A stretch of 64,000 bases of DNA from Leptolyngbyaceae cyanobacterium (GTDB taxonomy: Bacteria; Cyanobacteriota; Cyanobacteriia; Phormidesmidales; Phormidesmidaceae). The stretch spans positions 1-64,000 of the forward strand of contig JBHJHA010000010.1 of assembly GCA_050331235.1 (NCBI GenBank). The letters are read 5' to 3'. The notes under the pieces are model-generated. The model did no database searches and was not told the origin of the DNA. It saw only the letters and a program-made list of their open reading frames with translations. This document shows, piece by piece, positions 1 through 14,234 of the stretch (its first letter is position 1; the number at the start of each line of letters is the position of its first letter). Both the position numbers and the translations under genes were made by a program.

Positions 1-962
1 GTTGGGTGCCACACGGGGGTATAGGGGGGATCCACAGGGGCTTCGATGTGGTTGGCCGCAATATAGCGATCGATGGTGCCTTTGATGCTTTCAGCAACAG
101 CGTCGGCTTGGTCTAAATTCTCCGCCAGGGTCCCGTCAAAGGTCAGGGTTGCCCCTTGAACATCCGTTATTCGACCATAGAGCTGCATGCCTTCCAGAGC
201 GAAGTGACGCAGATCAATCTCCCGACCGCCTCCCCGTCCGGTGACATAGTGGTTGGTCTTGTGGCGCACCTTTTCTTTTTGGGGATGCTTGTCGATGGGG
301 ATGTTGTAATAGCCCATCTGCTCTAGCCAGTCCACCACATCCTTCCCTCGATAGCGACGGGGTGATCGCGGCGCGCCACCGACACACAGATGCACCTGCC
401 GCCCCGCGAGATGCAGATCTTCGGCAATCTGGCAGCCCGACTGCCCCGTACCGACAATCAGCACGTCACCGGGGGTCAACGCCTCCGGATTTTTGTATGC
501 CGAGGAATGAAGCTGGGCGATGGATGGCGGTAAACAGCTAGCAAAGTCAGGGATTTTGGGCGTGTGGTAGCCGCCGGTGGCGATCACGACTTGGCTCGCG
601 GTAAACTCCCCCGCTGAGGTGCTGAGATAAAACCGGTTGCGACCGTCGGGACGGATGCGATCTACTGTTACTCCCTCTTCAACCGGTAAGTCATAGGTGC
701 GGGCGTAGCGTTTGACGTAGGCTACAATTTCGTCCCGCACCATAAACCCATTGGGGTCATCGCCCTGATAGGGAAAATCTGGGAGCTGACACTGCCAGTT
801 GGGCGTCACGAGACAAAAAGAATCCCATCTTTGATGCTGCCACGCGTGGGCAATCTGATGTTTTTCCAGCACTACGTGGTCAATGCCGCGCTGTTTGAGG
901 CAGTAGCTGATGGACAAGCCCGCTTGCCCGCCGCCCACAATGATGACCGTGTAGTGCTGCAT
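1..962 (-). CDS. MSMEG_0569-family flavin-dependent oxidoreductase (Nit1C flavoprotein); 3' end runs off the window
   Basis: Not in the ORF track because it has no stop in the window. Manual translation from ATG 962 gives MQHYTVIIVGGGQAGLSISY...RWDSFCLVTPNWQCQLP, i.e. an FAD GxGxxG motif, plus a second VGTGQSG dinucleotide motif. Adjacent to the Nit1C genes. Confidence 0.88.
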   Translation of the reverse strand, partial: MQHYTVIIVGGGQAGLSISYCLKQRGIDHVVLEKHQIAHAWQHQRWDSFCLVTPNWQCQLPDFPYQGDDPNGFMVRDEIVAYVKRYARTYDLPVEEGVTVDRIRPDGRNRFYLSTSAGEFTASQVVIATGGYHTPKIPDFASCLPPSIAQLHSSAYKNPEALTPGDVLIVGTGQSGCQIAEDLHLAGRQVHLCVGGAPRSPRRYRGKDVVDWLEQMGYYNIPIDKHPQKEKVRHKTNHYVTGRGGGREIDLRHFALEGMQLYGRITDVQGATLTFDGTLAENLDQADAVAESIKGTIDRYIAANHIEAPVDPPYTPVWHP

Positions 963-1262
963 GGGTTGAAAAAATAAATACTGTTTCAAACGCTAAACGG
1001 TCTCTCAGCAAAACCCTGTAGCCCCAGGCACACAATGACAAAAGCTGTGACTAAGGGGAGTTCACCCTGAATGTGAACCACTGGCCCTATCTCCTCCGTA
1101 GTGTTAACGGCAAGGACGGTTGACGGTTCATCAGTTTGCCCCGACAGGGGGCAAGGAAGCGATCTCCCTCCTATCACTTTCGATAGGATTGTCGGGGTAA
1201 TTGAGTTCTCAACCTGCCCATCTCAGCTAAACCCTGTCAGTAAGTACAGACCTCAAGGTTTT

Positions 1263-1304
1263 GTTGTGGCTGATACAAGTCGAGGTGAGACGGCCCCGTA
1301 AGGT
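1263..1304 (+). promoter_or_regulatory. NtcA-activated class II promoter of the Nit1C operon
   Basis: GTT-gtggctga-TAC (GTN10AC) at 1263-1276, then exactly 22 nt, then TAAGGT (TAN3T -10 box) at 1299-1304. Confidence 0.7.
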
Positions 1305-1389
1305 ACACATCAACCCGAGCACGGCTAGGTTAACGCATGGGTCTGAGATTCCAGGCCGAGCTGTGCTGCTACTATTGAGGATTTTTTCC

Positions 1390-1872
1390 ATGCCTGAGGT
1401 TACTGCACCCGCCCACAAGGCTGGGGACTATTTTGTTGATTACGAAGAAAAGGTGTTTCCAGATGTTCAGGCTGAACCCGGCGAGAAGGCCTTAGTCACG
1501 TTTCATACGGTGGCCTTCGAAGGCTCCATCGGTCTAGTGAATTTGCTCCAAGCGACCCGTCTCATTCGTAAGGGCTTTGAGACCTCAGTGTTGCTTTACG
1601 GACCTGGTGTCACCCTTGGGGTGCAGCGAGGGTTTCCGAAGCTTGGGGACGAAGCCTTTCCTGGTCATATGGCAATGAACAATCAGTTGGTCAAAGTGAT
1701 GGAAGAAGGCGGTAAGGTTTATGCCTGTCGTTTTGCCTTGCAGGCGCTGTATGGCCACGGCGAGCCTTCGCTGATTCCCGGCATTACTCCCATCAACCCA
1801 TTGGATGTGTTGGATATCGTTTTGGTTCACCGTAAAGAGGGAGCCTTTATTCTCGACACCTGGACGATGTAG
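1390..1872 (+). CDS. MSMEG_0572/Sll0783-family DsrE-like nitrogen-starvation protein
   Basis: [26 protein letters not shown]...[13 protein letters not shown]. Start moved to ATG 1390, preceded by GAGG. Confidence 0.88.
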
Positions 1873-1980
1873 CGCAGTGGGTCAAGTCCTTGGCTAGAGG
1901 GGCCTGACTCCCTGACTTTCGTTCGATTGGTGATATTCCCTAGAGTTGAGTCGCTGCCGCAGCGCGGCTAGTTTTAACCT

Positions 1981-2988
1981 ATGAATCATGTGAAAACCGT
2001 TCGCGCTGCGGCAGTCCAAATCAGTCCGGTGCTGGACAGCTGTGATGGCACTACGGAGAAGGTGCTAACGGCGATCGCCGCTGCGGCCGAGCAGGACGTG
2101 GAGCTGATCGTCTTCCCCGAAACCCTAATTCCCTACTATCCCTACTTCTCCTTTGTGCTACCACCGGTACTGATGGGCAAGGCCCACATGGCCCTGTATG
2201 AGCAGGCGGTAGCGGTGCCCGGTCCCGTGGTGGACGCCGTGAGTCGGGCCGCTCGCTCCTATGAGATGGTGATTGTGCTGGGGGTGAATGAGCGAGACAA
2301 CGGCTCGCTCTACAACACTCAGCTCATCTTTGATACGGACGGCTCGCTGCTGCTCAAGCGGCGCAAAATTACCCCGACTTACCACGAACGGATGGTCTGG
2401 GGGCAGGGCGACGGCTCCGGTCTCGTCGTCGCCGAGACGCGGGTGGGTCGGGTTGGCGCCCTGGCCTGTTGGGAACATTACAACCCCCTGGCCCGCTTTG
2501 CGCTTATGGCCCAGCATGAGCAGATCCACTGCGGGCAATTTCCCGGTTCGATGGTGGGTCAGATTTTCAGCGATCAGATGGAAGTGACCATGCGCCATCA
2601 CGCGCTGGAGTCGGGCTGTTTTGTGGTTAATGCCACAGGCTGGCTAACAACCGAGCAAAAGCAGCAGATTACCGCCGATGACAAGTTGCATGGGGTACTG
2701 AGTGGTGGCTGCTATACCGCCATCATTAGCCCCGAAGGGGTGCCGTTGACTGACCCCATGATCGAAGGGGAGGGCATGGCGATCGCCGATTTAGATTTTT
2801 CACTCATTACCAAACGCAAACGCATGATGGACTCGGTGGGGCATTATGCCCGTCCCGACCTGTTGAAGATGCGCGTCAACGGTGAGGTTTGGTCGGTGCT
2901 CGACCCGCCTACCTCAGCGTCTCCCGTCGCCAGCCCTCCCGAGCCGCTGACCTCAACTGAATCGTCTGACTCTGAACTCCCTGTTTAA
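1981..2988 (+). CDS. Nit6803-family nitrilase (Nit1C)
   Basis: Catalytic E-K-C motifs [15 protein letters not shown] and LACWEH; C-terminal GHYARPD. Confidence 0.95.
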
Positions 2989-3005
2989 CTTTCTTTTTTG
3001 CCGTC

Positions 3006-4094
3006 ATGAAAAAGCAGCAACTGATCACCGAGCTTCAAACCACAGGCCTACGACTGATGGAGCAGTCGGTGGGTGCTCAAGGTCGACAGGGCGGAGCGGG
3101 GCCCTCTGATCACAAAGCGGTAACGGTGAATGGTACGACCGTCATGGTCCCCATCTATACAAGTACGGCCAGCGCCTCACCCTATGCAGCGGCGGTGCAG
3201 CCGGGGCAGCAGCGGGCGACACTGACCCACGCTGAGTCGGCGATCGCCGAGATTGAGTTTCCTCACCAGCCTAAGTTTTATAGCCTTCAGACTACCGACG
3301 GCATTCCCTATTGGAAAATTGCCCTGCTGCACAGCAACGACGTATTAGCAACAACCGTGCAGCAAACCTGTATGCGCTATCGCGACGAGGCCACCGCCTG
3401 CCAATTTTGCGCCATTGAGCGATCGCTGGCGCAAGAGCGGACCATCGCTCGCAAATCCCCAGAGCAGCTCGCCGAAGTCGCCGAGGCCGCCGTGCGGTTA
3501 GACGGGGTCAAGCATTTGGTCATGACCACAGGCACCCCCCATACTTCGGATCGCGGAGCAGCCTATCTGGCGGAGTGTGCCCGTGCGGTTAAAGCGCGAG
3601 TCGATCTACCCATTCAGGCCCAGTGTGAACCGCCGGCTGATTTTGCTTGGTTTGATCGGCTCAAGCAAGCTGGCGTCGATAGCTTAGGCATGCACCTAGA
3701 GGCCGCCGACCCCACAGTCCGCGCTCGCATCATGCCCGGCAAAGCAGAGGTGCCGCTGTCTGTTTATTACGACGCCTTTGCGGCCGCGGTCGCTGTCTTT
3801 GGTTGGGGGCAGGTGAGCACCTATCTGCTAGCAGGCTTGGGGGATTCGTTAGAAACGCTAACGGCGGTTTCCGAGCGGTTGATTAATTTGGGCGTTTATC
3901 CGTTTGTGGTGCCCTTTGTACCGATCTCCGATACGCCCCTAGCGCACCATCCCGCCCCCAGCACCGACTTCATGATGGCGGTTTATCAGCGCGTTGGTCG
4001 CCTGCTCAAGCAGGGGGGCATGACCGCTGACACCATCAAGGCCGGCTGCGCCAAATGCGGGGCCTGCTCGGCCCTCTCTACCTTTGAAAAGTAG
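3006..4094 (+). CDS. MSMEG_0568-family radical SAM protein
   Basis: GGAGPSDHKA motif, non-canonical Cx9Cx2C (CMRYRDEATACQFC), C-terminal CAKCGAC; cluster context. Confidence 0.9.
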   Translation: MKKQQLITELQTTGLRLMEQSVGAQGRQGGAGPSDHKAVTVNGTTVMVPIYTSTASASPYAAAVQPGQQRATLTHAESAIAEIEFPHQPKFYSLQTTDGIPYWKIALLHSNDVLATTVQQTCMRYRDEATACQFCAIERSLAQERTIARKSPEQLAEVAEAAVRLDGVKHLVMTTGTPHTSDRGAAYLAECARAVKARVDLPIQAQCEPPADFAWFDRLKQAGVDSLGMHLEAADPTVRARIMPGKAEVPLSVYYDAFAAAVAVFGWGQVSTYLLAGLGDSLETLTAVSERLINLGVYPFVVPFVPISDTPLAHHPAPSTDFMMAVYQRVGRLLKQGGMTADTIKAGCAKCGACSALSTFEK

Positions 4095-4160
4095 TACTCA
4101 GCTGAGATTGAGGAGGCGCTAGCGATCACCCGTTAGCCGTGCTGTGTTTTAGGAGGAATT

Positions 4161-4679
4161 GTGATGTCTTTACCTCGATATACTTTTGAGCTTGCCCAAG
4201 CTCCCCACGATGTCAGGGCCTATTTTCGTCTGCGTCGAGAGATTTTCTGTGAAGAGCAGGGGCTGTTTGCGGAAGACGATATTGACGCCACGGATGACGT
4301 GGCCTATTCCATCATTGCAGTCGAGCATCATGTCTTGGCCGGTCGTCAGGTGGTGGGCATTGTGCGGATTTACGAAACTGAGGAGCGGCTTTGGTATGGC
4401 GGACGGCTCGGGGTCAAGCCAAACTATCGCCGGGTTGGCAGCATTGGCAAGGGTCTGATTCAAAAAGCCGTGACTACGGCCAACGCCTGGGGCTGCGATC
4501 GCTTTCTTGCTACGGTGCAGTTACAAAATGTGCGTTTTTTTCGGCGGCTGCACTGGGCATCTCTGCAAGAGTTAGAAATTTGCGATCGCCCCCACCATTT
4601 AATGGAGGCCGACCTCGCCTTTTATCCGCCGAGTCAAGAGCCTCGCCCAGCGCAAGTCGGGCTGCTCCAAGCTTGTTAG
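4161..4679 (+). CDS. MSMEG_0567/Sll0786-family GNAT N-acetyltransferase
   Basis: LRREIFCEEQGLF, WYGGRLGV...GSIGKGLI, FLATVQLQNVRFF; AGGAGG RBS. Confidence 0.9.
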   Translation: MMSLPRYTFELAQAPHDVRAYFRLRREIFCEEQGLFAEDDIDATDDVAYSIIAVEHHVLAGRQVVGIVRIYETEERLWYGGRLGVKPNYRRVGSIGKGLIQKAVTTANAWGCDRFLATVQLQNVRFFRRLHWASLQELEICDRPHHLMEADLAFYPPSQEPRPAQVGLLQAC

Positions 4680-4722
4680 CGTTTGTTCCCGTACCTGTTG
4701 TATCCCTCTAGCCTGTACCGCC

Positions 4723-5700
4723 GTGTTGACCGATCTTGCTGAGCAGCTGCGCCAAACCTTAGGCATCCGATACAAGCAGGACATTCAAACGGCTGCCCAC
4801 AAGCTAGGACAGTACGTATCGGCTGGAGAAAATCAGGCACCAATTTTGCTGGGGGACGACTGTGCCGCCATTCCCCGGGGCGATCGCTACCTGCTGCTAG
4901 CCGCCGAGGGGTTGTGGCCTCAACTCGTTCAGGCAGAGCCGTGGTTTGCCGGATGGAGTGCTCTGCTGGTGAACGTCAGCGATATTTACGCCATGGGGGG
5001 ACGGCCGATCGCCGTGGTAGATGCCCTGTGGAGCCCTACGGCGGCGGCGACTCACCCCCTGTGGGAAGGCATGTTGGCGGCTTCCCGCGCGTTTAACGTG
5101 CCCATCGTTGGCGGCCATACCAATTGCCAGAGCCCCTATGCGGCACTGTCAGTGGCGATTTTAGGTGAAGCCAATTGCCTATTAACTAGCTTTGATGCAC
5201 AGGTGGGCGATCGCTTGGTTCTAGTTGCGGACTTTGAGGGGCAGCCCTACCGCGACTATCCCTTTTGGGATGCCGCCACCGCTAAAGCGCCAGCCGACCT
5301 CCAAATTAATTTATCACTGCTGCCTCAAATCGCAGAGTCGGGTCTGTGCGATACTGCCAAAGACATCAGCATGGGGGGCTTGGTCGGCACCACCCTGATG
5401 CTAATGGAGACCTCCCGGTGCGGGGCGATTTTGCAGGTGGACCAGATTCCCTGTCCAGCGGGGCTATCGCTCCAGCGGTGGCTCACCAGTTTCCCCAGCT
5501 ATGGGTTTTTGCTCAGCGTGCGCCCCGAAAGGGTCTCCGCTATCCAGGCAATCTTTCAGGCGCGAGGGCTAGTATGTGCCGCGATCGGAGAGGTGGTGGC
5601 CCCCCTGACCTTGACCCTCAAAACGGCCGCCGAAACCGTGTATTTTTGGGATCTGCAACAGGCACCGTTAACCGGGTTTGCCCCTGTAGGCGCTAGCTAG
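4723..5700 (+). CDS. Sll0787-family AIR-synthase-like (PurM/ThiL/HypE/SelD fold) protein
   Basis: GDDCAA, VNVSDIYAMGG, IVGGHTN and KDISMGG motifs. Confidence 0.9.
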   Translation: MLTDLAEQLRQTLGIRYKQDIQTAAHKLGQYVSAGENQAPILLGDDCAAIPRGDRYLLLAAEGLWPQLVQAEPWFAGWSALLVNVSDIYAMGGRPIAVVDALWSPTAAATHPLWEGMLAASRAFNVPIVGGHTNCQSPYAALSVAILGEANCLLTSFDAQVGDRLVLVADFEGQPYRDYPFWDAATAKAPADLQINLSLLPQIAESGLCDTAKDISMGGLVGTTLMLMETSRCGAILQVDQIPCPAGLSLQRWLTSFPSYGFLLSVRPERVSAIQAIFQARGLVCAAIGEVVAPLTLTLKTAAETVYFWDLQQAPLTGFAPVGAS

Positions 5701-6903
5701 ATGGTGCATGCCGCGATGAAAATTGCTCTCCTCACCTATTCCATTAAGCCGCGAGGCAGCGTGATGCATACCCTTGCCCTGGCGGCGGCACTGACGGAGC
5801 GGGGACACACGGTTTGGGTATTTGCCCTAGATAAAGATGGTTCAGGATTTGAGCAAACGCTACCCTTTATGGTGCAGCTTGTCCCAGCCCAACCGGCACC
5901 TGGGGACATTGATCAGCTCATTCAGCAGCGCATCCGTGAGTTTGTTGACGGCTTTCAGGCGGGGGTGCCGGCGTTTGACATTTATCACGCGCAAGACTGT
6001 ATTGGTGCTAATGCCCTCTTGATGCTGCGAGAGGCTGGCGTCATTCCCCACTTTGTCCGCACGGTCCACCATGTCGAAGCGTTTCACAGTCCCTACCTGC
6101 GCGCCTGTCAAGACAGGTCAATCTATCAGCCTGATTTGTGCCTCTGCGTCAGCGATCGCTGGCAGCAGGTATTGGCCCGAGATTACGGCATCCAGGCAGC
6201 CCGCGTCATAAATGGTATTGACGTTCAGCGATTTTCGCCTGTGCCCAGTGGACAAGAGACCGCGCTTAAAGCGCGCTATGGGCTGACAGGAAACCCGATT
6301 TACCTGACTATTGGCGGCATCGAACCCCGTAAAAACTCCATCGGTCTGCTCCAGGCCTTTGCGCAAGTACTGGCAAAGGTGCCCCAGGCACAGCTGGTCA
6401 TTGCCGGGGGGGCTACGCTGTTTGACTATCAGCCTTACCGAGCCCAGTTTTTCGCTGCGGCAGCGGCCCGCCAAATTGATCTCCACCGCGCGGTGGTCTT
6501 GCCTGGGGTAGTTGCCGCCGCTGATTTGCCAGTGCTGTATCGGTGTGCCGACGTATTTTGTTTTCCCTCATTGCAAGAAGGCTGGGGCCTGGTGGTCATG
6601 GAGGCGATCGCCTCCGGTTTGCCCGTCGTGGTTTCCCAGCAGCCGCCGTTTACAGAATTTTTAGCCCCTAATCAAGCCCTTTGGGCTGACCCTCAGAGCG
6701 CGACGAGTATCGCTAAAGCCATGCTGGCAGGCTGTCACTCGGACATGACTCAGATGGTGCAGCGGAGCCAAGCAGTATTATCGGATTATCACTGGTCGCG
6801 TTCCGCCGCTCTCCATGAGGGGCATTATCAAGCGCTGGTGCAGCAGCTTGCTCCTACCGGTACGAAGGGCCACGCACTACACGGTTTGCGGGGCGATGCT
6901 TGA
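5701..6903 (+). CDS. MSMEG_0565-family GT4 glycosyltransferase
   Basis: KPRGSVMH, HAQDCI, GGIEPRKN and EGWGLVVMEA (Ex7E). True start may be ATG 5716. Confidence 0.9.
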   Translation: MVHAAMKIALLTYSIKPRGSVMHTLALAAALTERGHTVWVFALDKDGSGFEQTLPFMVQLVPAQPAPGDIDQLIQQRIREFVDGFQAGVPAFDIYHAQDCIGANALLMLREAGVIPHFVRTVHHVEAFHSPYLRACQDRSIYQPDLCLCVSDRWQQVLARDYGIQAARVINGIDVQRFSPVPSGQETALKARYGLTGNPIYLTIGGIEPRKNSIGLLQAFAQVLAKVPQAQLVIAGGATLFDYQPYRAQFFAAAAARQIDLHRAVVLPGVVAAADLPVLYRCADVFCFPSLQEGWGLVVMEAIASGLPVVVSQQPPFTEFLAPNQALWADPQSATSIAKAMLAGCHSDMTQMVQRSQAVLSDYHWSRSAALHEGHYQALVQQLAPTGTKGHALHGLRGDA

Positions 6904-6946
6904 TTCTTCCGTCTGCACTTTGTTCCCGTTCACTGCATAAACCACC

Positions 6947-7240
6947 ATGCCAGAAATCAAATTTCAAATTAGATGGCCCGACGGCTCGCAACAAACCTGC
7001 TACTCGCCTTCGCTGGTAGTCAAAAAATACTTAGACCCGGGTACTCACTATGCCCTCGACGACTTCTTGGCCCGCTCCCGGGAAGCGCTGAAAATTGCCA
7101 GCGATCGCGTTCAACAGAAATATGGTTTTCCCTGCGGTCGTGCCCTCGGTCAGCTCCAGGAACTTGAAACGCGCACGGCTCAATTCACAGATTTAGCAGC
7201 TCCCCAGGTCGAATTTATTCAGTTTATTGAGGACTGGTAA
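6947..7240 (+). CDS. MSMEG_0570-family small protein
   Basis: MPEIKFQIRWPDG...CYSPSLVV...ASDRVQQKYGFPC. Confidence 0.88.
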   Translation: MPEIKFQIRWPDGSQQTCYSPSLVVKKYLDPGTHYALDDFLARSREALKIASDRVQQKYGFPCGRALGQLQELETRTAQFTDLAAPQVEFIQFIEDW

Positions 7241-7372: not shown

Positions 7373-8419
7373 TTAGCCAATAGCGTCATCAAATTCAGTC
7401 AAATCTTTCTCTGGCACCCCTTCGCCGGCAAAGAGTTCTGCCGTCCGCTGATGCGCTTTTTCTCGAGCTTGGGGGGTGATATTCGTAGCGATGGTAGCGG
7501 CGACCGTCGTCAATGCGGTGAAATCATCCGTAAATCCGACCGCTGGCAAGATATCTGGCAGCATGTCAACCGGCAATATCCAGTAGGTCAGGGCACCAAC
7601 GATTTTGAGCTTAGCGGTTGTGGGGGTTTCGGCATCGTGGAGCGCATACCACAGCACAAAGGCTTGCTCCACCAAGCCCTGACCTGCTTGAATGCCAAAG
7701 GCTTTCATCTTGTCTAAAAATCGGCGATCGCTATATTTAATATCATCAGTCGCCGCTGAATCGTCAGCACGGGCCAGCGCTTGGATCGGAATGCCAACCC
7801 GCTGCATCCGTTCGCTGGCTGCTTTGACCTGACTAACAGCGGCTGGACTCTGCTCCTCCCGGGCGATCGCCAGCGCTTGAATATAGTTGTGAACCGTTTC
7901 CACCTGAACATCATTGATTTGGAGGACATCCTGGGCAGTTATGAGGGCCTGTTCTTCCTCCGGGGTCATGATCCCGTTAATCCGAATCAGGTTGAGAATG
8001 CAAAAAATCAGCCCAAATTTCAGTTCCTGATCGGCATCTGCCAGCTTCGCCAAGGACTCTACCAGGGGCGGCGGCTCGTAGGAATACGACTGCAATTCCG
8101 CTTTTTCTGACTCAGAGAGGTTTTCGGCCTCTGGGCTAGCAAATACAAACTTCAGTTCTGCCTCGTCGAGCTGGTTATCAATGGCCGCGATCGCAAAAAG
8201 GACTGCCAAAAAAGCCAGGGTGTCCTCGTTGGAGAAGGGCAACCAGTCTTGCACACTTTCGACTAGACCGGAGGTAGTTTGGCGCAGATTCTGACTGACA
8301 TTCGCCGCAGCGGTGCCAACGGATTGGCCGATGCTAGCAGTCGTTTTGGCGATATTTTGACCTAGGCTACTCGCCCGCTGAGTGGTGGTTTTGATCGCTG
8401 AGCTGAACCAATTTGCCAT
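7373..8419 (-). CDS. TerB-like + YkvA/DUF1232 domain fusion protein
   Basis: Central AIAAIDNQLDEAE...TPEEEQAL (TerB-like); C-terminal GALTYWILPVDMLPDILPAVGFTDD (DUF1232). Confidence 0.7.
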   Translation of the reverse strand: MANWFSSAIKTTTQRASSLGQNIAKTTASIGQSVGTAAANVSQNLRQTTSGLVESVQDWLPFSNEDTLAFLAVLFAIAAIDNQLDEAELKFVFASPEAENLSESEKAELQSYSYEPPPLVESLAKLADADQELKFGLIFCILNLIRINGIMTPEEEQALITAQDVLQINDVQVETVHNYIQALAIAREEQSPAAVSQVKAASERMQRVGIPIQALARADDSAATDDIKYSDRRFLDKMKAFGIQAGQGLVEQAFVLWYALHDAETPTTAKLKIVGALTYWILPVDMLPDILPAVGFTDDFTALTTVAATIATNITPQAREKAHQRTAELFAGEGVPEKDLTEFDDAIG

Positions 8420-8553
8420 GACCCTCAATCCCTAAACTGAAGCCTCATCGAGGCGGCCTTTTTAGGAATACCATTCTTGATACCCAGCGACATCTTTCTA
8501 TGTAGTGATGACGGTCAAGAATCGATCCAGTCAGATGATAGTTAGAACCGTCT

Positions 8554-8669
8554 TATACTATTTCTGCAAATCACGACGACATACAAATTCTTCAAAGCCC
8601 CTTTTTCAAGGGGACAGCGACAGCGGGGGATCTTCAAATCTGTAGCGCTATTACAGAGAATTTGGTGTA
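8554..8669. repeat. MITE-like dispersed repeat, copy A
   Basis: TATACTATTTCT...AGAATTTGGTGTA ends with a central CCCCTTTTTCAAGGGG hairpin. Aligns with 19231-19345 and, inverted, with 45981-46070. Confidence 0.75.
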
Positions 8670-8864
8670 CACCTCGAACCCTAGACTTTTGCCCCGCTGC
8701 TACGGGAGCCTAGCCGTAGGGCCGGGCGCGTTCCTTTGCAATCGACTAATCCCGCCGAGAGTTAGAATCCGGCTCGGGTATCGATGGGGCAAGTCTACGC
8801 TGGTTTAATGACCAGCTCGATTGCCCGAAGTCATTCAGTTTGGGCAGATGGCCTAAATTGCGAC

Positions 8865-9926
8865 CTAATCGGGACAGAGCGAGACCACGTTGCCGTAGTA
8901 GGCGAGCAAGCTGTAAGTCTGTAAATGGCAAAGATCTTGCTGAATTGCGGCTTGCTGCTGCTCGTAAGTCAAATCAAGAGGCGTTTGGCCCAAGAGAATC
9001 TCAATGAGGCTCGGCTCATCATAACCAATGCGCACAAGTTGGTAGTCATCTTCAAACTCTAGGGTAGTGGCCAGGGCGGCCACAGCCTCCGGGCGGCCAC
9101 TGGTGCCATCAATCAGGTTGTACTGCTCCGCTTGCTCAGTACCAAAGATATAAGCCCCCATTTCTTGACGGAGCGTTTGCTCAGAGATGTCCCGCGTCTC
9201 AGAAACATGCTCGACAAAGTTATCGTACTCATTGTTGATATTGGTGCGAAGGACTTGCAGCTCCTCCTCATTGGGTTGACGAAAAGGATTGCCGAGATCT
9301 TTACCTTTGCCCGCTGAGATCACAAACTGCTGGATGCCCCCCTGGGTCGTGACGCCGCCCCCGAGGAGACCGCCGTCGATCGCGACCGGACTGTCAAAAT
9401 AGACCAAGGTGGGGCCAACGACGCCAATGCTGCCGATCAAACTGCCAGGGGCGGCAAAAATCTGGTCGGCGGCCACCATTGACCAGACTCCCCCTGAGGC
9501 CGAAAGCCCCTCAATGTAGGCATAGATGGGTTTTTCAGTCGTCGCTTTATAGTCAGCCAGGGCTTCATAAATCACGTTAGAGCCGACTACGGTGCCGCCT
9601 GGGGTGGAGATGCGCAAAAAGACTCCCTGGACGCGTTCGTCCTCAGCGACTTTTTCCATGAGCTTTTGAAACTGATAAGCATAGGTGACGCTAGAGTCGA
9701 GGCTAAAAAATCCGGAATTAGAAGGGGTGTTCAGGATGGGGCCATTGATGCGAAGTTCTAACAAATAGTTATCGCTGTCTTCGTCACCATCCACGTATCG
9801 AAACTCTAAGGTGTCCTCTTCTTCCTCTGTTGAACTGCTAGAAAAGTTGGGAATGCAGCCGGTGACTCCTAAGCCAAGGGCAACTAAGCTTATGGACAAT
9901 CCTAAGCTTTGAAAAATGCGATTCAT
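8865..9926 (-). CDS. sppA: S49-family (SppA-type) signal peptide peptidase, probable lipoprotein
   Basis: ISTPGG, SASGG (catalytic Ser), GSIGV and GKGKD motifs; N-terminal lipobox-like VTGC. Confidence 0.85.
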   Translation of the reverse strand: MNRIFQSLGLSISLVALGLGVTGCIPNFSSSSTEEEEDTLEFRYVDGDEDSDNYLLELRINGPILNTPSNSGFFSLDSSVTYAYQFQKLMEKVAEDERVQGVFLRISTPGGTVVGSNVIYEALADYKATTEKPIYAYIEGLSASGGVWSMVAADQIFAAPGSLIGSIGVVGPTLVYFDSPVAIDGGLLGGGVTTQGGIQQFVISAGKGKDLGNPFRQPNEEELQVLRTNINNEYDNFVEHVSETRDISEQTLRQEMGAYIFGTEQAEQYNLIDGTSGRPEAVAALATTLEFEDDYQLVRIGYDEPSLIEILLGQTPLDLTYEQQQAAIQQDLCHLQTYSLLAYYGNVVSLCPD

Positions 9927-10164
9927 GAACCTCGTTTCCTACTGAAAATGTGACGCGATTTTTGGCCTATCGCTATGGTAAAAGCTAAATCAGGATTTCC
10001 CGTGTAATCTGCCTCAAGATGGTGACATTAGAAAGACTTGCTAACACTCCTAAGTAAAGCCTAGAAACCCAGAAGACTTGTCCCGGGTAATTTTGACAGG
10101 GAGGGGAAGGTGCGTTCCATGACGGCTGGAGTCCAGCGATCGCCCACCAGGGCCTCGTCGCTAC

Positions 10165-11505
10165 TCACTGGGGGGCCTGTGGGGCATACCAATGGGCGAT
10201 CGCCTGATTATGCACGTCTCGCCAGGGGAGGTTGTGCTGCTGGGCCAGCGCTGCACAGTCGGCGTACTCAGGATGAGCTTTGAGGGGGCGATCGCTGCCT
10301 GGTTCATAGGCTACCTTCATCCGGATATCGCCCAGGGGAGTGGTCAGCACGACGATGGCTCGCCGGAGCCGTAATCGGGATTGGTGCATGCGGCGGACGC
10401 CTAAAGTGGTCGTCTCTCGCCACAAAGCCGCTTCGCAGGCATCCGCCTGCTCGGGGTAGACGATCGCCTTAATTAGGTGACCGGGTCGCGACTTTTTCAT
10501 GGTGATGGCTTGCACAAAGACATCCAATGCTCCGGCGGCGAAGAGGCGATCGTACAGATAGCCGATCGCTTGTGGAGCTAGATCGTCAATCTGCGTTTCC
10601 AGTACGGTCACGGTTTCTCGTCCGGAGCGTGCTTCGACGTCAAGCGCGGTAGGTGCAGCCACCGGGAAATTTGCCTGTGTCGCCGGAGCCAGCGGGGGCT
10701 CATGGTGAGCATTGACGACCGGTGAAGCCACTCTCGACGATGAAGAGTGCTGGGGCTGGTCGGCAGCATATCCCATCCATAAGCGGAGGACATTGGGAAC
10801 GGGCAGTTCTTTGCTGCCGGCACCCAGCCCGACCTTCTGTAGCTGCATCGCGGGTGGATCGCCAAAGTGAGTCGCCAACTCAGTGGCGATCGCGGCCCCA
10901 GTTGGAGTCACGAGTTCCCCCATTAACCCGGCATTGTAGAGGGGCACTTGGGCCATTTCCATCAGCTTCAGCACCGCCGGGGCCGGCACCGGCAATCGAC
11001 CATGGGCCGCTTTGACAAAGCCCTGACCAGTAGGCAGCGGGGCACAATATAGAGCGTCAATGGCTAACCAATCGAGGCCGACACAGGTCCCAACGATATC
11101 GACAATGGCATCGGTGGCTCCAACCTCATGGAAATGAACCGCTTGCGGATCGACGCCATGGATCGCACCCTCGGCCTGGGCCAAACGCTGGAATATGGCC
11201 AGACTCCACTGAGTCGCCCGCGCTGGCAGGTCCGCGGCCTGAATAATATGTTCAATTTCCCGGAGATGGCGGGCGGGCGGCGGGTGAGTGTCCCCCGAGT
11301 CATGGGATAGGACAACATCAACCTTGGTTGCCGCAATGCCGTTTTTGCGAACTTGACGGCGGCGTAGTTCCACCGGTTCAGGCAAATTGAGACGGGCAAT
11401 CAGCCCCTGAAGATCGACTAAGGGCATCCCAGCGCTGACGATCGCGCCTAAACACATATCGCCCGAAATCCCCGTGGGACAGTCTAAAAAGGCTAAAGTC
11501 TTCAT
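10165..11505 (-). CDS. larC: Nickel pincer cofactor biosynthesis protein LarC
   Basis: DCPTGISGDM, VHFHEVGATDAIVDIVG, ELVTPTGAA, MKKSRPG, ETTTLGVR, PEYADC. Confidence 0.93.
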   Translation of the reverse strand: MKTLAFLDCPTGISGDMCLGAIVSAGMPLVDLQGLIARLNLPEPVELRRRQVRKNGIAATKVDVVLSHDSGDTHPPPARHLREIEHIIQAADLPARATQWSLAIFQRLAQAEGAIHGVDPQAVHFHEVGATDAIVDIVGTCVGLDWLAIDALYCAPLPTGQGFVKAAHGRLPVPAPAVLKLMEMAQVPLYNAGLMGELVTPTGAAIATELATHFGDPPAMQLQKVGLGAGSKELPVPNVLRLWMGYAADQPQHSSSSRVASPVVNAHHEPPLAPATQANFPVAAPTALDVEARSGRETVTVLETQIDDLAPQAIGYLYDRLFAAGALDVFVQAITMKKSRPGHLIKAIVYPEQADACEAALWRETTTLGVRRMHQSRLRLRRAIVVLTTPLGDIRMKVAYEPGSDRPLKAHPEYADCAALAQQHNLPWRDVHNQAIAHWYAPQAPQ

Positions 11506-11591
11506 ACAAAATCGTCATTGCGCCATCACTATCTTCCATAATGAAGGCGACTTGTGGTTGACAGCTTAACTTAACAGGGGGAAATGACACC

Positions 11592-12266
11592 ATGGCGATA
11601 ACCTACTCCGTTCATCCTGAAACCCCCCAGCCCCGCCAAATCGAGGCCATTCGTGATGCGCTGCGCAGCGGTGCCATCATGCTCTACCCCACTGATACGG
11701 TCTATGCGATCGGCTGTGACCTAACGGCGAAGCCCGCCATTGATCGAGTGCGACAGCTTAAGCAAACTAGCAATGACAAGCCCCTGACGTTTATGTGCTC
11801 GTCATTGTCAAATATTGCAGAATACGCCTACGTGAGCGATCCAGCCTACCGTCAGATTCGGCATTTAATCCCTGGGCCTTACACTTTTTTGCTGCCAGCA
11901 ACTAAGCAAGTCCCTAAACTTGTGATGAGTCCCAAGCGCAAAACAACCGGAATCAGAGTGCCTGACTGTCCCATCTGTTTATCGCTCATCGAAGCTTTAG
12001 ATAATCCAATTGTGTCTACGTCTGCCCTGTCCCTGCTGGACTTGGACGCCTTACCGGTACCGTCCAAAGCAGAGCTGTTTGACTGGGTCGGTCCCCAGGT
12101 CGATATCATCGTCGATGACGATCGCGACTTGTCCTACGGGTTATCTACCATTTTGAATCTGGTTGAGCCCGCGGACCACACCATCGAGCGGCGAGGCCTC
12201 GGCTGGGAGCAGGCCGCAGATTTGGGCATCGAGGTAGCAGAAGCCGCGATCTTATCAACCCACTGA
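11592..12266 (+). CDS. Sua5/YciO/YrdC-family (threonylcarbamoyl-AMP synthase-like) protein
   Basis: YPTDTVYAIGC, PGPYTF, GIRVPD, STSA. Confidence 0.9.
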   Translation: MAITYSVHPETPQPRQIEAIRDALRSGAIMLYPTDTVYAIGCDLTAKPAIDRVRQLKQTSNDKPLTFMCSSLSNIAEYAYVSDPAYRQIRHLIPGPYTFLLPATKQVPKLVMSPKRKTTGIRVPDCPICLSLIEALDNPIVSTSALSLLDLDALPVPSKAELFDWVGPQVDIIVDDDRDLSYGLSTILNLVEPADHTIERRGLGWEQAADLGIEVAEAAILSTH

Positions 12267-12294
12267 TGGTCTAACCCGCGATCGCCCGACCCGA

Positions 12295-12575
12295 TCAAGA
12301 AATCAGCAGGTCGAGCTCGCTATCGGTCAAGTCCGCAGCGCCAACGAGCTCAGTCCGCACCGCTAAGTAGCGTCCGGTGTAAATGCCTGACCGCTTAAAC
12401 CGGGGATTGGAGCGGCCAGCCTGGACATCCGCTTCGGTATAGGCGTCTCAATTCCGGGGCGATCGCACCCTTGTGGCGAGGCGAAAACATGTCTTGGGAA
12501 AGCCTCATATAATCCCTCAAATCTCTGGAGCAAAAGATACTGACATTCAGCCAATTTTGATTTGGATTTTGACAT
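12295..12575 (-). pseudogene. Possible frameshifted small hypothetical gene (~93 codons)
   Basis: MSKSKSKLAECQYLLL...ASPQ continues, after a 1-nt shift and one TGA, as VRSPRN*DAYTEADVQAGRSNPRFKRSGIYTGRYLAVRTELVGAADLTDSELDLLIS*. Confidence 0.3.
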
Positions 12576-12678
12576 CTTTTAGGAAGTGCGGTGGTTTGCG
12601 ACGTCTGATAGATGGAAGGGGGGCGCTGTCCTGCCAAAATTAAGACCGCTGTTTTGCTCGATGGGGCGATGGTAACGA

Positions 12679-13191
12679 ATGAAAAGATTAAAAGGATTTT
12701 TGACGCTGCTGTTGGCTATGGTGCTGTGTCTGACGATCGCCGGACTGAATAGCCCTGCCAGCGCTGATGACCACACGGCGATGGAGAGTCCTGTTGCTGA
12801 TGGCGGTCTTGTCCGGGTCAGGAGCGATTTTAGTGTCAGCGAAACAGGCGACCGCCTCGAAGCACTCATCGCTGATCGCAGCCTGACCCTGTTTACCCGC
12901 ATTGACCATGCCGCCAATGCCGCCTCCGTCGGGAAGGAACTCCGGCCCACCGAAGTGGTCGTATTTGGGAATCCCAATGTGGGCACGCCGCTGATGCAGT
13001 GCAGTCAGTCGGTGGCGATTGACCTACCGCAAAAAATGCTGATATGGCAAGATGCTGATGGACAAGTCTGGCTCGCCTACAACGACCCCAACTACCTGGC
13101 GGCGCGGCACCAAATTGAGGGCTGCGAGCGAGTGCTCGGCCGGATTAGCCAGGTTCTGGGTGACTTAACCCAAAATGTGGCGGTAAGGTAA
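12679..13191 (+). CDS. DUF302 domain secreted protein
   Basis: Signal peptide; IDHAANA...LRPTEVVVFGNPNVGTPLMQ...AIDLPQKMLIW. Confidence 0.88.
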   Translation: MKRLKGFLTLLLAMVLCLTIAGLNSPASADDHTAMESPVADGGLVRVRSDFSVSETGDRLEALIADRSLTLFTRIDHAANAASVGKELRPTEVVVFGNPNVGTPLMQCSQSVAIDLPQKMLIWQDADGQVWLAYNDPNYLAARHQIEGCERVLGRISQVLGDLTQNVAVR

Positions 13192-13305
13192 TTCAGCCTC
13201 GGGAGCTGAGCGACTCTGAACGGGTGGCAAGTTCGCTGCTGCAGCTTAAGGGAGTGCGTTCGCAGGCACATTTTCACGGTGTGCCCTATGCCTCGACCAA
13301 CCAGT

Positions 13306-13335
13306 AAAAAGCACACTTAGGGTCTCTAAGTGTGC
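13306..13335 (-). terminator. Stem-loop, terminator-like
   Basis: AAAAA-GCACACTTAG-ggtct-CTAAGTGTGC; 10-bp perfect stem with the U-tract on the minus strand. Confidence 0.5.
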
Positions 13336-13508
13336 CGACAGATTGAGCTCTTGCTGTCTGACTGACCCCTGAGAGCGATCTTTGTTCCCAAGGGGTATCG
13401 GGCAGTGACTGAGCTAGTCTCCGCTTTGCTACCGTCTATGAACGGCAGTGATCGCTAGTTTTTACCCTGCGTTAGGATAGCTGCAGCAATCTTTGGTTTG
13501 CGGCTACC

Positions 13509-14234
13509 TTGGCATCATTCAGCACTGTGGATTCTCTACCCTCATACCAGTCCCCGTCTCCTCGGTCTCAGCAGACACCGACGAAAGGGCGGCGCTCAGC
13601 GCTTGTCATCGCATTGGTTTTATTCGGAGGGGCTTGGCTGTTCTCCACTGTGAAACCTCTGATGTGGGGGCGATCGCTGCGTTTGCTCCCTCCCCTCGCT
13701 GAGATTGACTCAGCACCGCTCAAAATGGCCGGTGGGGATCCCCATATCCGGGCACTGATGCGGACTATTTCCGTCGCTGAGTCTCACACGGCTGAGCCTT
13801 ACCACACCCTCTATGGCGGACAGCGGATTAGCGATCTGACCGAGCATCCTGACCTGTGCGTTGATATTGTGGCTGGCCCCAACGTCGGCAATTGCACCAC
13901 CGCGGCTGGGCGGTATCAATTTTTGACCACAACCTGGTTAGAAAAAGCCCAACAATATCATCCTCAACCGCCACGGTGGTATTCCTGGTGGGCGGACTAT
14001 AGCTTTGAGCCGGCATATCAAGATGAAGTGGTGTATCGCTGGCTCAGCGATACCGTGGCTTGGAATGCTGATATCGCCGATTTGCTGCGGCAAGGCTACC
14101 TCAGCGAAGTGCTTTATCTGCTCTCTGGCACTTGGACGAGCCTCGGCTACGGTATCGAAGACAACGCGGTAACGCCCTACCTGCACCGAGTGTATGAGCA
14201 AATGCTGGCGGAAGAACTGGCAACAGTTCCATAG
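13509..14234 (+). CDS. Lambda-lysozyme-like muramidase (GH104/GH24-like) with N-terminal membrane segment
   Basis: RALMRTISVAES, YHTLYGG, TAAGRYQFLTTTW, FEPAYQD, LSGTWTSL. Start uncertain. Confidence 0.85.
   Translation: MASFSTVDSLPSYQSPSPRSQQTPTKGRRSALVIALVLFGGAWLFSTVKPLMWGRSLRLLPPLAEIDSAPLKMAGGDPHIRALMRTISVAESHTAEPYHTLYGGQRISDLTEHPDLCVDIVAGPNVGNCTTAAGRYQFLTTTWLEKAQQYHPQPPRWYSWWADYSFEPAYQDEVVYRWLSDTVAWNADIADLLRQGYLSEVLYLLSGTWTSLGYGIEDNAVTPYLHRVYEQMLAEELATVP

Follow-up and report, generated by a model that had tools for sequence, protein, structure and literature searches.

The Nit1C cluster, a set of seven genes defined in 2005 by Podar et al., who also noted an optional glycosyltransferase (GT) and a copy on pLVPK (PMC1199592), is 20 years old and still unsolved. 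Reports connect it with nitrogen starvation, with redox balance and with the ability to grow on cyanide, and it ranges from cyanobacteria to mycobacteria and to hundreds of Klebsiella plasmids. The window analysed here, a whole stretch of 64,000 nucleotides from a Leptolyngbyaceae cyanobacterium, carries a copy of this cluster at its 5' end, consisting of eight open reading frames (ORFs), with nitH on the minus strand and seven genes on the plus strand. By itself, this copy adds nothing new. Its comparison with cyanobacterial and distant loci suggests that nitD, nitE and nitF (D-E-F) form a separable core. The question is thereby narrowed to three of the eight genes, the GT-centred idea falls away, and the cluster is linked to methanogenesis marker 2 (marker 2 below).

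Mutants in nitA, nitB or nitC are reported not to grow on cyanide or aliphatic nitriles (PMC5939895, which is not the primary paper). For purified NitC, cyanide is a poor substrate, acetone cyanohydrin is not turned over and the catalytic efficiency is low (PMC7815647). The authors of that study doubt that nitrilase activity alone explains the essentiality and raise a possible biosynthetic metabolon; a biosynthetic role for Nit1C has thus already been suggested in print and is not a new idea. In Mycobacterium smegmatis, the gpr cluster raises NADPH/NADP and peroxide resistance (PMC6039565), and in Synechocystis a mutant in sll0783 fails to raise NADPH/NADP (PMC3901256). One paper states that Nit1C genes are absent from Archaea. 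Within the literature searched, outside of which most subscription papers fell, neither a substrate or product for Nit1C nor a paper tying Nit1C genes to coenzyme M or marker 2 was found. A 'cyanide oxygenase' of Pseudomonas fluorescens NCIMB 11764 reportedly gives CO2 and ammonia and involves a small cofactor; the arguments below make no use of it.

Comparison with described Nit1C clusters

All eight proteins exceed the curated NCBIfam cut-offs of the Nit1C/MSMEG_0565-0572 families TIGR04042 to TIGR04049 (Table 1), and the gene order B-C-D-E-F-GT-G, with the flavoprotein at one end, agrees with the Nit1C order of PMC1199592. On both counts, the original prediction, which had identified the locus as the Nit1C/MSMEG_0565-0572 cluster from the letters alone, is correct. 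With the described Nit1C clusters (PMC1199592; sll0783-sll0787 in Synechocystis; nitBCDEFGH in Pseudomonas), the locus shares all seven genes, their order and an NtcA-type promoter, and with the cyanobacterial form (PMC1199592) it shares the divergent flavoprotein at the start. It differs in carrying the optional GT, placed between nitF and nitG as is known from Burkholderia and Rubrivivax, and in the cut nitH gene. The ORFs confirm the predicted flavoprotein divergent from seven co-directional genes, with the addition that nitH is cut by the contig end: because the window opens at the first base of its contig (C10), the gene is incomplete, and approximately 100 C-terminal residues are missing. 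In the case of the M. smegmatis gpr operon MSMEG_0565-0572 (PMC6039565), the same families, including the GT, and the nitrogen-starvation control are found, but the gene order is different, the regulator is GlnR rather than NtcA, and an extra amidase, MSMEG_0566, has no counterpart in this cluster.

The closest Nit1C loci are Halomicronema, Nodosilinea and Leptolyngbya-like, and 6,482 HIP1 sites were counted in the host DNA; on both counts the host looks cyanobacterial. Judged by its sequence, the locus is a cyanobacterial copy of the usual kind and a new member of the long-known Nit1C system. The predicted motifs are also present, namely C122-x9-C132-x2-C135 and C348-x2-C351-x2-C354 in NitD, C18YSPS and C63GRA in NitG, and an N-terminus without GCGCK in NitF. 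Furthermore, the catalytic triad E47-K129-C163 of NitC is intact.

Table 1. Genes and promoter elements of the Nit1C locus, with positions in the window; scores are NCBIfam bits obtained/cut-off.
Feature	Position	Strand	Score or detail
nitH, MSMEG_0569-family flavoprotein	3..962	-	TIGR04046 529/498 bits; profile 1-317 of 400
NtcA-type box and -10 element, predicted nitB promoter	1263..1304	+	GT-N9-TAC 1263-1276; TA-N3-T 1299-1304
nitB (Sll0783/MSMEG_0572), DsrE/TusD-like fold (model)	1390..1872	+	TIGR04044 289/110 bits
nitC, Nit6803-family nitrilase	1981..2988	+	TIGR04048 573/503 bits
nitD, radical SAM enzyme	3006..4094	+	TIGR04043 599/304 bits
nitE, GNAT acyltransferase	4164..4679	+	TIGR04045 240/68 bits
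nitF (Sll0787), PurM-fold	4723..5700	+	TIGR04049 461/321 bits
GT, MSMEG_0565-family GT4 glycosyltransferase	5716..6903	+	TIGR04047 502/260 bits
nitG (MSMEG_0570), 97 residues	6947..7240	+	TIGR04042 127/80 bits

Distribution of nitD, nitE and nitF

NitD homologs were taken from a search of 50%-identity representatives, down to 29% identity. A metagenome scan with eight distant NitD proteins yielded at least 69 loci (528 kb; 20 of them at least 10 kb long), a biased sample in which some loci are redundant; the counts given for these distant loci hold among the matches listed. The D and E genes are fused in 28 of the 69 loci, and the NitE domain is present above its cut-off in 9 of 17 long NitD homologs scanned. 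Where the flanks reach at least 1.6 kb upstream and at least 1.3 kb downstream (21 loci), an F-type gene is found in 16 and a GNAT gene in 18. The GNAT is sometimes of an unrelated type, and in L133 such an unrelated GNAT is fused to F. The NitB, NitG and NitH profiles and the GT query gave no match in the 69 loci, and one distant nitrilase was detected. CCG/heterodisulfide-reductase-like proteins occur in 13 of them, MtaA/CmuA-family methyltransferases in five and a DsrE protein in one. The heterodisulfide-reductase-like, aldehyde:ferredoxin oxidoreductase and corrinoid neighbours point to hosts that are probably anaerobic; by source name, the NitD homologs include Methanohalarchaeum and Methanobacteriaceae, and the F-type proteins Deltaproteobacteria and Thermodesulfobacteriota. 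In a midpoint-rooted NitD tree of 21 rows, all four NitDs with a linked nitrilase fall into a single supported clade, surrounded by sequences from nitrilase-free loci.

Of 121 cyanobacterial genomes sampled, the same six contain D and F, and in all five genomes whose locus had no F, the gene is located elsewhere. One genome (G004, completeness not given) possesses C, D, E and F together with OsmC-like and acyl-CoA-dehydrogenase-like genes and shows no match to B, G or H, and another (G003) has B, G and H together on another contig. Because of these distributions in the distant loci and the two cyanobacterial genomes, gene content indicates that D-E-F is the core of the system, to which C has been added; B-G-H form an aerobic module that can be separated from it, and the GT is optional. 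The recurrence of the trio without a nitrilase upholds the earlier view that the cluster serves more than simple catabolism, as does the doubt of the NitC authors that nitrilase activity explains everything (PMC7815647).

The GT is present in 5 of the 6 NitD-positive genomes and in none of the 115 other sampled cyanobacterial genomes. It is missing from the three proteobacterial clusters opened, from 5 of the 28 cyanobacterial loci that have nitF as well as nitG (a visual count), from one of the six NitD genomes and from all 69 distant loci. This pattern suggests a GT dedicated to the cluster but dispensable; since the GT is dispensable, the proposal that NitF acts like SelD/SenC as a donor for the GT cannot describe the core chemistry. 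Moreover, with 21 bits on the SenB profile, where 300 are required, the GT falls outside the SenB partner family.

Several loci show further gene arrangements. The variant cyanobacterial loci L006, L007, L010, L012, L015 and L042 contain OsmC-like, acyl-CoA-dehydrogenase-like and TetR genes; in four of them a paralog of the cyanase-type binding protein also lies upstream of nitE, with cynS beside it in L010. Among the distant loci, L104, L110, L115 and L144 have a recurrent block upstream of D-E-F, comprising a BPL_N-domain protein, multiheme cytochromes, cytochrome b and a CCG-domain protein. In L157 (9887-11062), a Methanobacteriaceae-type NitD homolog with 26% identity to the distant query follows a gene for a Cys/Met pyridoxal phosphate enzyme; no GNAT or F-type gene lies upstream of it, and the locus ends 0.5 kb downstream. 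NitD also matches 517 plasmid records, 373 of them from Klebsiella; in the opened plasmid NZ_CP088984.1 (L084:7523-14687), a seven-gene cluster is situated between a MocR-like regulator and an acyl-CoA-ligase-like gene. A phage search with a fused NitD homolog gave weak partial matches only.

Putative functions of the proteins and the competing explanations

In NitD, five cysteines are conserved in 60 of 60 full-length homologs, down to 29% identity, and C354 is conserved in 59 of 60. From these six conserved cysteines, two Fe-S clusters are predicted, one held by Cx9Cx2C and the other by the C-terminal Cx2Cx2C. Among radical SAM families of established biochemistry, LipS2 gives the best match to NitD, as it does to 26 of 32 homologs scanned. 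LipS2, which acts on protein-bound octanoyl-lysine, introduces a thiol at a terminal carbon and holds its second cluster by cysteines (PMC9585515), and NitD too contains a second, C-terminal Cys set. There are, however, clear differences between the two: NitD scores 39 bits on LipS2 against a cut-off of 270, carries Cx9Cx2C instead of Cx3Cx2C, and has three clustered C-terminal cysteines and an N-terminal extension. Compared with the LipS1/LipS2 system, no lipoyl-domain or ligase gene lies near this cluster.

NitF shares the PurM fold, with its acidic metal/ATP-site residues, with SelD/SenC and HypE. Residues K18, D46, D87, G131-H132, D214, S216, G219 and E229 are kept in all 29 distant partners, and by alignment the acidic ATP/Mg site appears intact. 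Beyond its own family TIGR04049 (461 bits), NitF scores 260 bits on marker 2 (TIGR03267, cut-off 365), 74 on ThiL and 45 on SelD (TIGR00476, cut-off 125), while a profile search of the PDB gives ThiL 73.5, PurL 72, SelD 65 and HypE 56 bits, all remote. By these scores, marker 2 is the nearest sister family, and the distant NitD partners score about equally on both families, although NitF itself stays below the marker 2 cut-off. SelD carries an N-terminal catalytic Cys/Sec motif, and HypE a C-terminal cysteine bearing the carbamoyl/cyano group. In NitF, the SelD-type catalytic residue is absent, there is no cysteine before residue 47, and no cysteine is common to the aerobic and distant groups; K18 is invariant, but the SelD alignments start after it. 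Likewise, the NitF C-termini have no conserved Cys, and no HypE family occurs among the 15 family matches.

NitB contains a single cysteine, C113, which is invariant in 68 of 68 homologs. Its model (predicted local distance difference test, pLDDT, 75) matches DsrE/DsrF, DsrEFH, YchN and TusBCD chains (Foldseek E 3e-6 to 1e-3, probability 1.0), and in an alignment to a Pfam DsrE protein, whose probability is only 43%, C113 falls on the Cys of that protein; a sequence-level Pfam scan of NitB gave no DsrE match. The model thus indicates a DsrE/TusD-like fold with a matching position of the conserved Cys. In NitG, C63 is invariant in 33 of 33 homologs, C18 is found in 30 of 33, and Pro2 and YSPS are invariant. 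The NitG model (pLDDT 92) has no Foldseek match at E<=0.001 (best Z 5.2), a missing match that does not show a new fold, and an Atlas search with NitG returned its own family only. The idea that both small Cys proteins are sulfur carriers therefore holds in part: NitB fits it by fold and invariant Cys, but NitB and NitG are both missing from the distant D-E-F loci. Fusions of NitG were set aside as a functional clue, there being only four longer proteins, three of them GT-NitG and possibly read-through. In every aligned homolog, NitB (1390-1395) and NitG (6947-6952) start with Met-Pro, and a free N-terminal proline could be catalytic. The nearest solved relatives of NitH in a PDB profile search (4usr, 4usq, 4c5o and 4a9w) are class B/type II flavin monooxygenases; because of this closeness, NitH is probably O2-dependent, in keeping with its absence from the distant D-E-F loci, among which CCG-type oxidoreductases are common.

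The explanation favoured here, tentatively and with the expectation that it may well prove wrong, is that D-E-F make a small thiol cofactor, that B, G and H cycle it, and that NitC frees ammonia from its cyanide or nitrile adduct. It is favoured because an acyltransferase, together with a radical SAM enzyme that may insert sulfur and a PurM-fold enzyme that depends on ATP, would suit the synthesis of a mercaptoacyl-amino-acid phosphate, and because each variant has neighbours that handle thiols and the phenotypes in print concern redox state. The modularity of the cluster, the LipS2 link, the DsrE/TusD-like NitB and the poor turnover of cyanide itself by NitC are consistent with it. NitE would acylate an amine, NitD would draw on its second Fe-S cluster to place sulfur on an unactivated carbon in a LipS2-like manner, and NitF would phosphorylate or activate the product with ATP. 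The result would be a mercaptoacyl-amino-acid phosphate built like coenzyme B, whose structure is the basis of the comparison. In aerobes, NitB would supply persulfide sulfur and NitH would use NAD(P)H and O2 for oxidation of the thiol, so that NitB, NitG and NitH together load and oxidise the cofactor. Cyanide would then cleave the disulfide to R-S-CN, which NitC would hydrolyse to the thiol, CO2 and ammonia, and the GT may decorate the product in some lineages. If the core does make such a compound, it would represent a new class of low-molecular-weight thiol, explaining the need for the non-nitrilase genes and why one ammonia-releasing enzyme travels with so many partners. A broader version, which we consider rather unlikely, holds that an old D-E-F pathway of aerobes, anaerobes and some archaea makes the coenzyme B-like thiol. 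Nit1C would then be its aerobic adaptation as a catalytic cyanide trap, yielding CO2 and ammonia by means of a DsrE-type carrier, a flavin monooxygenase, a nitrilase and a small protein whose fold has found no match. If this is true, the reaction of NitF would also name the reaction type of marker 2.

Several observations weigh against the thiol-cofactor explanation. The LipS2 match is weak (28-60 bits) and ends before LipS2 C276/C279, so that homology between the second-cluster ligands of NitD and LipS2 is at most putative. The only PDB sequence match for NitD is HydG (E 0.029), an enzyme without sulfur-inserting activity. ThiL, PurL, SelD and HypE all lie at about the same distance from NitF, so that its sequence points to no single reaction type. 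Five of the 21 well-flanked distant loci have no nearby F. Methanocaldococcus jannaschii and Methanosarcina acetivorans contain marker 2 and show no NitD-like match at E<=1e-20; D- and F-type enzymes thus appear separable. In addition, an NAD(P)H-consuming monooxygenase by itself fails to explain a cluster that raises NADPH, and the binding protein of a distant importer shares a motif with cyanase-linked proteins, as a catabolic role would have it. A coenzyme M link in the host was rejected, the host genome (95.5% complete) giving no ComA match. D-E-F as a universal coenzyme B route of methanogens was also rejected, since marker 2 occurs in the two control methanogens and a close NitD does not. 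A search for marker 2 proteins of named methanogens gave bacterial partners instead.

The strongest rival, unlikely but to be taken seriously, is that D-E-F act straight on a small nitrogen compound taken up from outside and degrade it at the level of cyanate, thiocyanate or carbamoyl, with the other genes finishing the process in aerobes. An NMT1/SsuA-family binding protein is found in 14 of the 69 distant loci, in 12 of the 14 with the motif W-x-x-H-P-C-C. The profile of these proteins matches a single protein in the host, which is the binding protein encoded in the C11 cyanase operon, and seven proteins in cyanobacterial loci, all with the motif and four directly upstream of nitE, whereas CmpA has HPEE at the motif position and TauA is without the motif. 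This distribution of the motif points towards chemistry of the cyanate level in both groups of loci. Induction by nitrogen starvation would also fit scavenging. However, the identity to the cyanase-linked proteins is only 24-31%, the best PDB match of the binding protein is TauA, the protein of L093 passes the SsuA cut-off, and ligand assignment by sequence is unreliable in this family (bioRxiv 10.64898/2026.10.08.757548). Furthermore, cyanase alone disposes of cyanate, and a radical SAM enzyme is costly for bulk catabolism. Five of the six NitD genomes have the gene cynS, but so do 28 of the 115 others, an uninformative co-occurrence, and PMC11049912 reports no cynS association in Pseudomonas.

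In the published model, which is rather improbable, cyanide and oxaloacetate react chemically, NitC hydrolyses the resulting 2-hydroxynitrile, and the other genes are supporting or regulatory. The growth defects of the nitA, nitB and nitC mutants on cyanide and aliphatic nitriles (PMC5939895) and the triad retained in this copy agree with it, but it assigns no role to D, E and F, which persist without the nitrilase. Simultaneously, the efficiency of NitC is poor, its authors doubt that the nitrilase is the whole reason (PMC7815647), and the redox phenotypes appear without added cyanide.

Protein modification is a decidedly unlikely alternative, in which D-E-F would build a lipoate-like thiol arm on NitB, NitG or another enzyme through acylation, sulfur insertion and ATP activation. 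LipS2 works on a protein-bound substrate, octanoyl-lysine (PMC9585515), GNATs acylate lysines, and NitB is 76-98% identical across the cyanobacterial loci with its lysines conserved. NitG, in contrast, has no invariant lysine among 33 aligned homologs, and with NitB and NitG absent from the 69 distant loci, the target would have to lie elsewhere.

The two reactions that the original prediction offered for NitF fare worse. In the HypE-like one, which is very unlikely, NitF would dehydrate an amide or S-carbamoyl group to a nitrile metabolite, and NitC would recycle it or serve self-protection. The intact ATP site of the PurM fold would allow this, and LnmK-like (Pnap_2097) and acyl-CoA-ligase-like genes follow some clusters. 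Nevertheless, HypE ranks under ThiL, PurL and SelD, a nitrile made and then hydrolysed would be futile under nitrogen starvation, 68 of the 69 distant loci are without a nitrilase, and NitF, with no conserved C-terminal Cys of its own, could act only on another molecule. The SelD/SenC-like one, thio- or selenophosphate made by NitF for a GT-formed thio- or selenosugar as in selenoneine synthesis, has the invariant N-terminal lysine and GGH motif of NitF, SelD among the PDB neighbours and the naming of MSMEG_0567 as a selenophosphate synthetase homolog (PMC6039565) in its favour, but is extremely unlikely given the many clusters without GT, the SenB score, the missing N-terminal Cys/Sec, a rank below ThiL and PurL and a SelD alignment that stops short of the lysine. 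Thiophosphate made by NitF for an acceptor other than the GT is possible.

Promoter, second nitH copy and surrounding genes

Ahead of nitB, an NtcA-type box is followed 22 bases downstream by a -10 element. The combination is present in 61 of 64 nitB upstream regions, which come from related, non-independent loci, compared with a mean of 3.5 and a maximum of 8 in 200 shuffles. NtcA binds the sll0783 promoter in chromatin immunoprecipitation sequencing (PMC5714215). The nitB promoter is accordingly predicted to be of the NtcA type, responding to nitrogen starvation.

A second nitH copy opens the host contig C29 (2-1905), convergent with a GAF-LuxR regulator gene and with an in-frame stop near its 5' end. 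It was considered as the missing 3' end of the nitH gene in the window and rejected, the two sharing 71% protein identity over 147 residues with many DNA differences and the one in-frame stop. The C29 gene is a separate copy, possibly decaying. A close homolog of the GAF-LuxR protein occurs in 18 of 80 related Nit1C loci and may be a second, ligand-sensing regulator of Nit1C.

The host also contains a cynABDS-type operon (C11:158016-162743), followed by a DUF1348-like gene; DUF1348 is also found near Nit1C in L010 and in an Agrobacterium plasmid. In the Agrobacterium plasmid cluster L085, a gene of the LnmK-like Pnap_2097 family (13135-13959) lies directly 3' of nitH. Downstream of the cluster in the window, the flanking genes at 7373-13191 seem unrelated to it, encoding a DUF1232 protein, an SppA-like peptidase, LarC, a Sua5/TsaC-family protein and a DUF302 protein.

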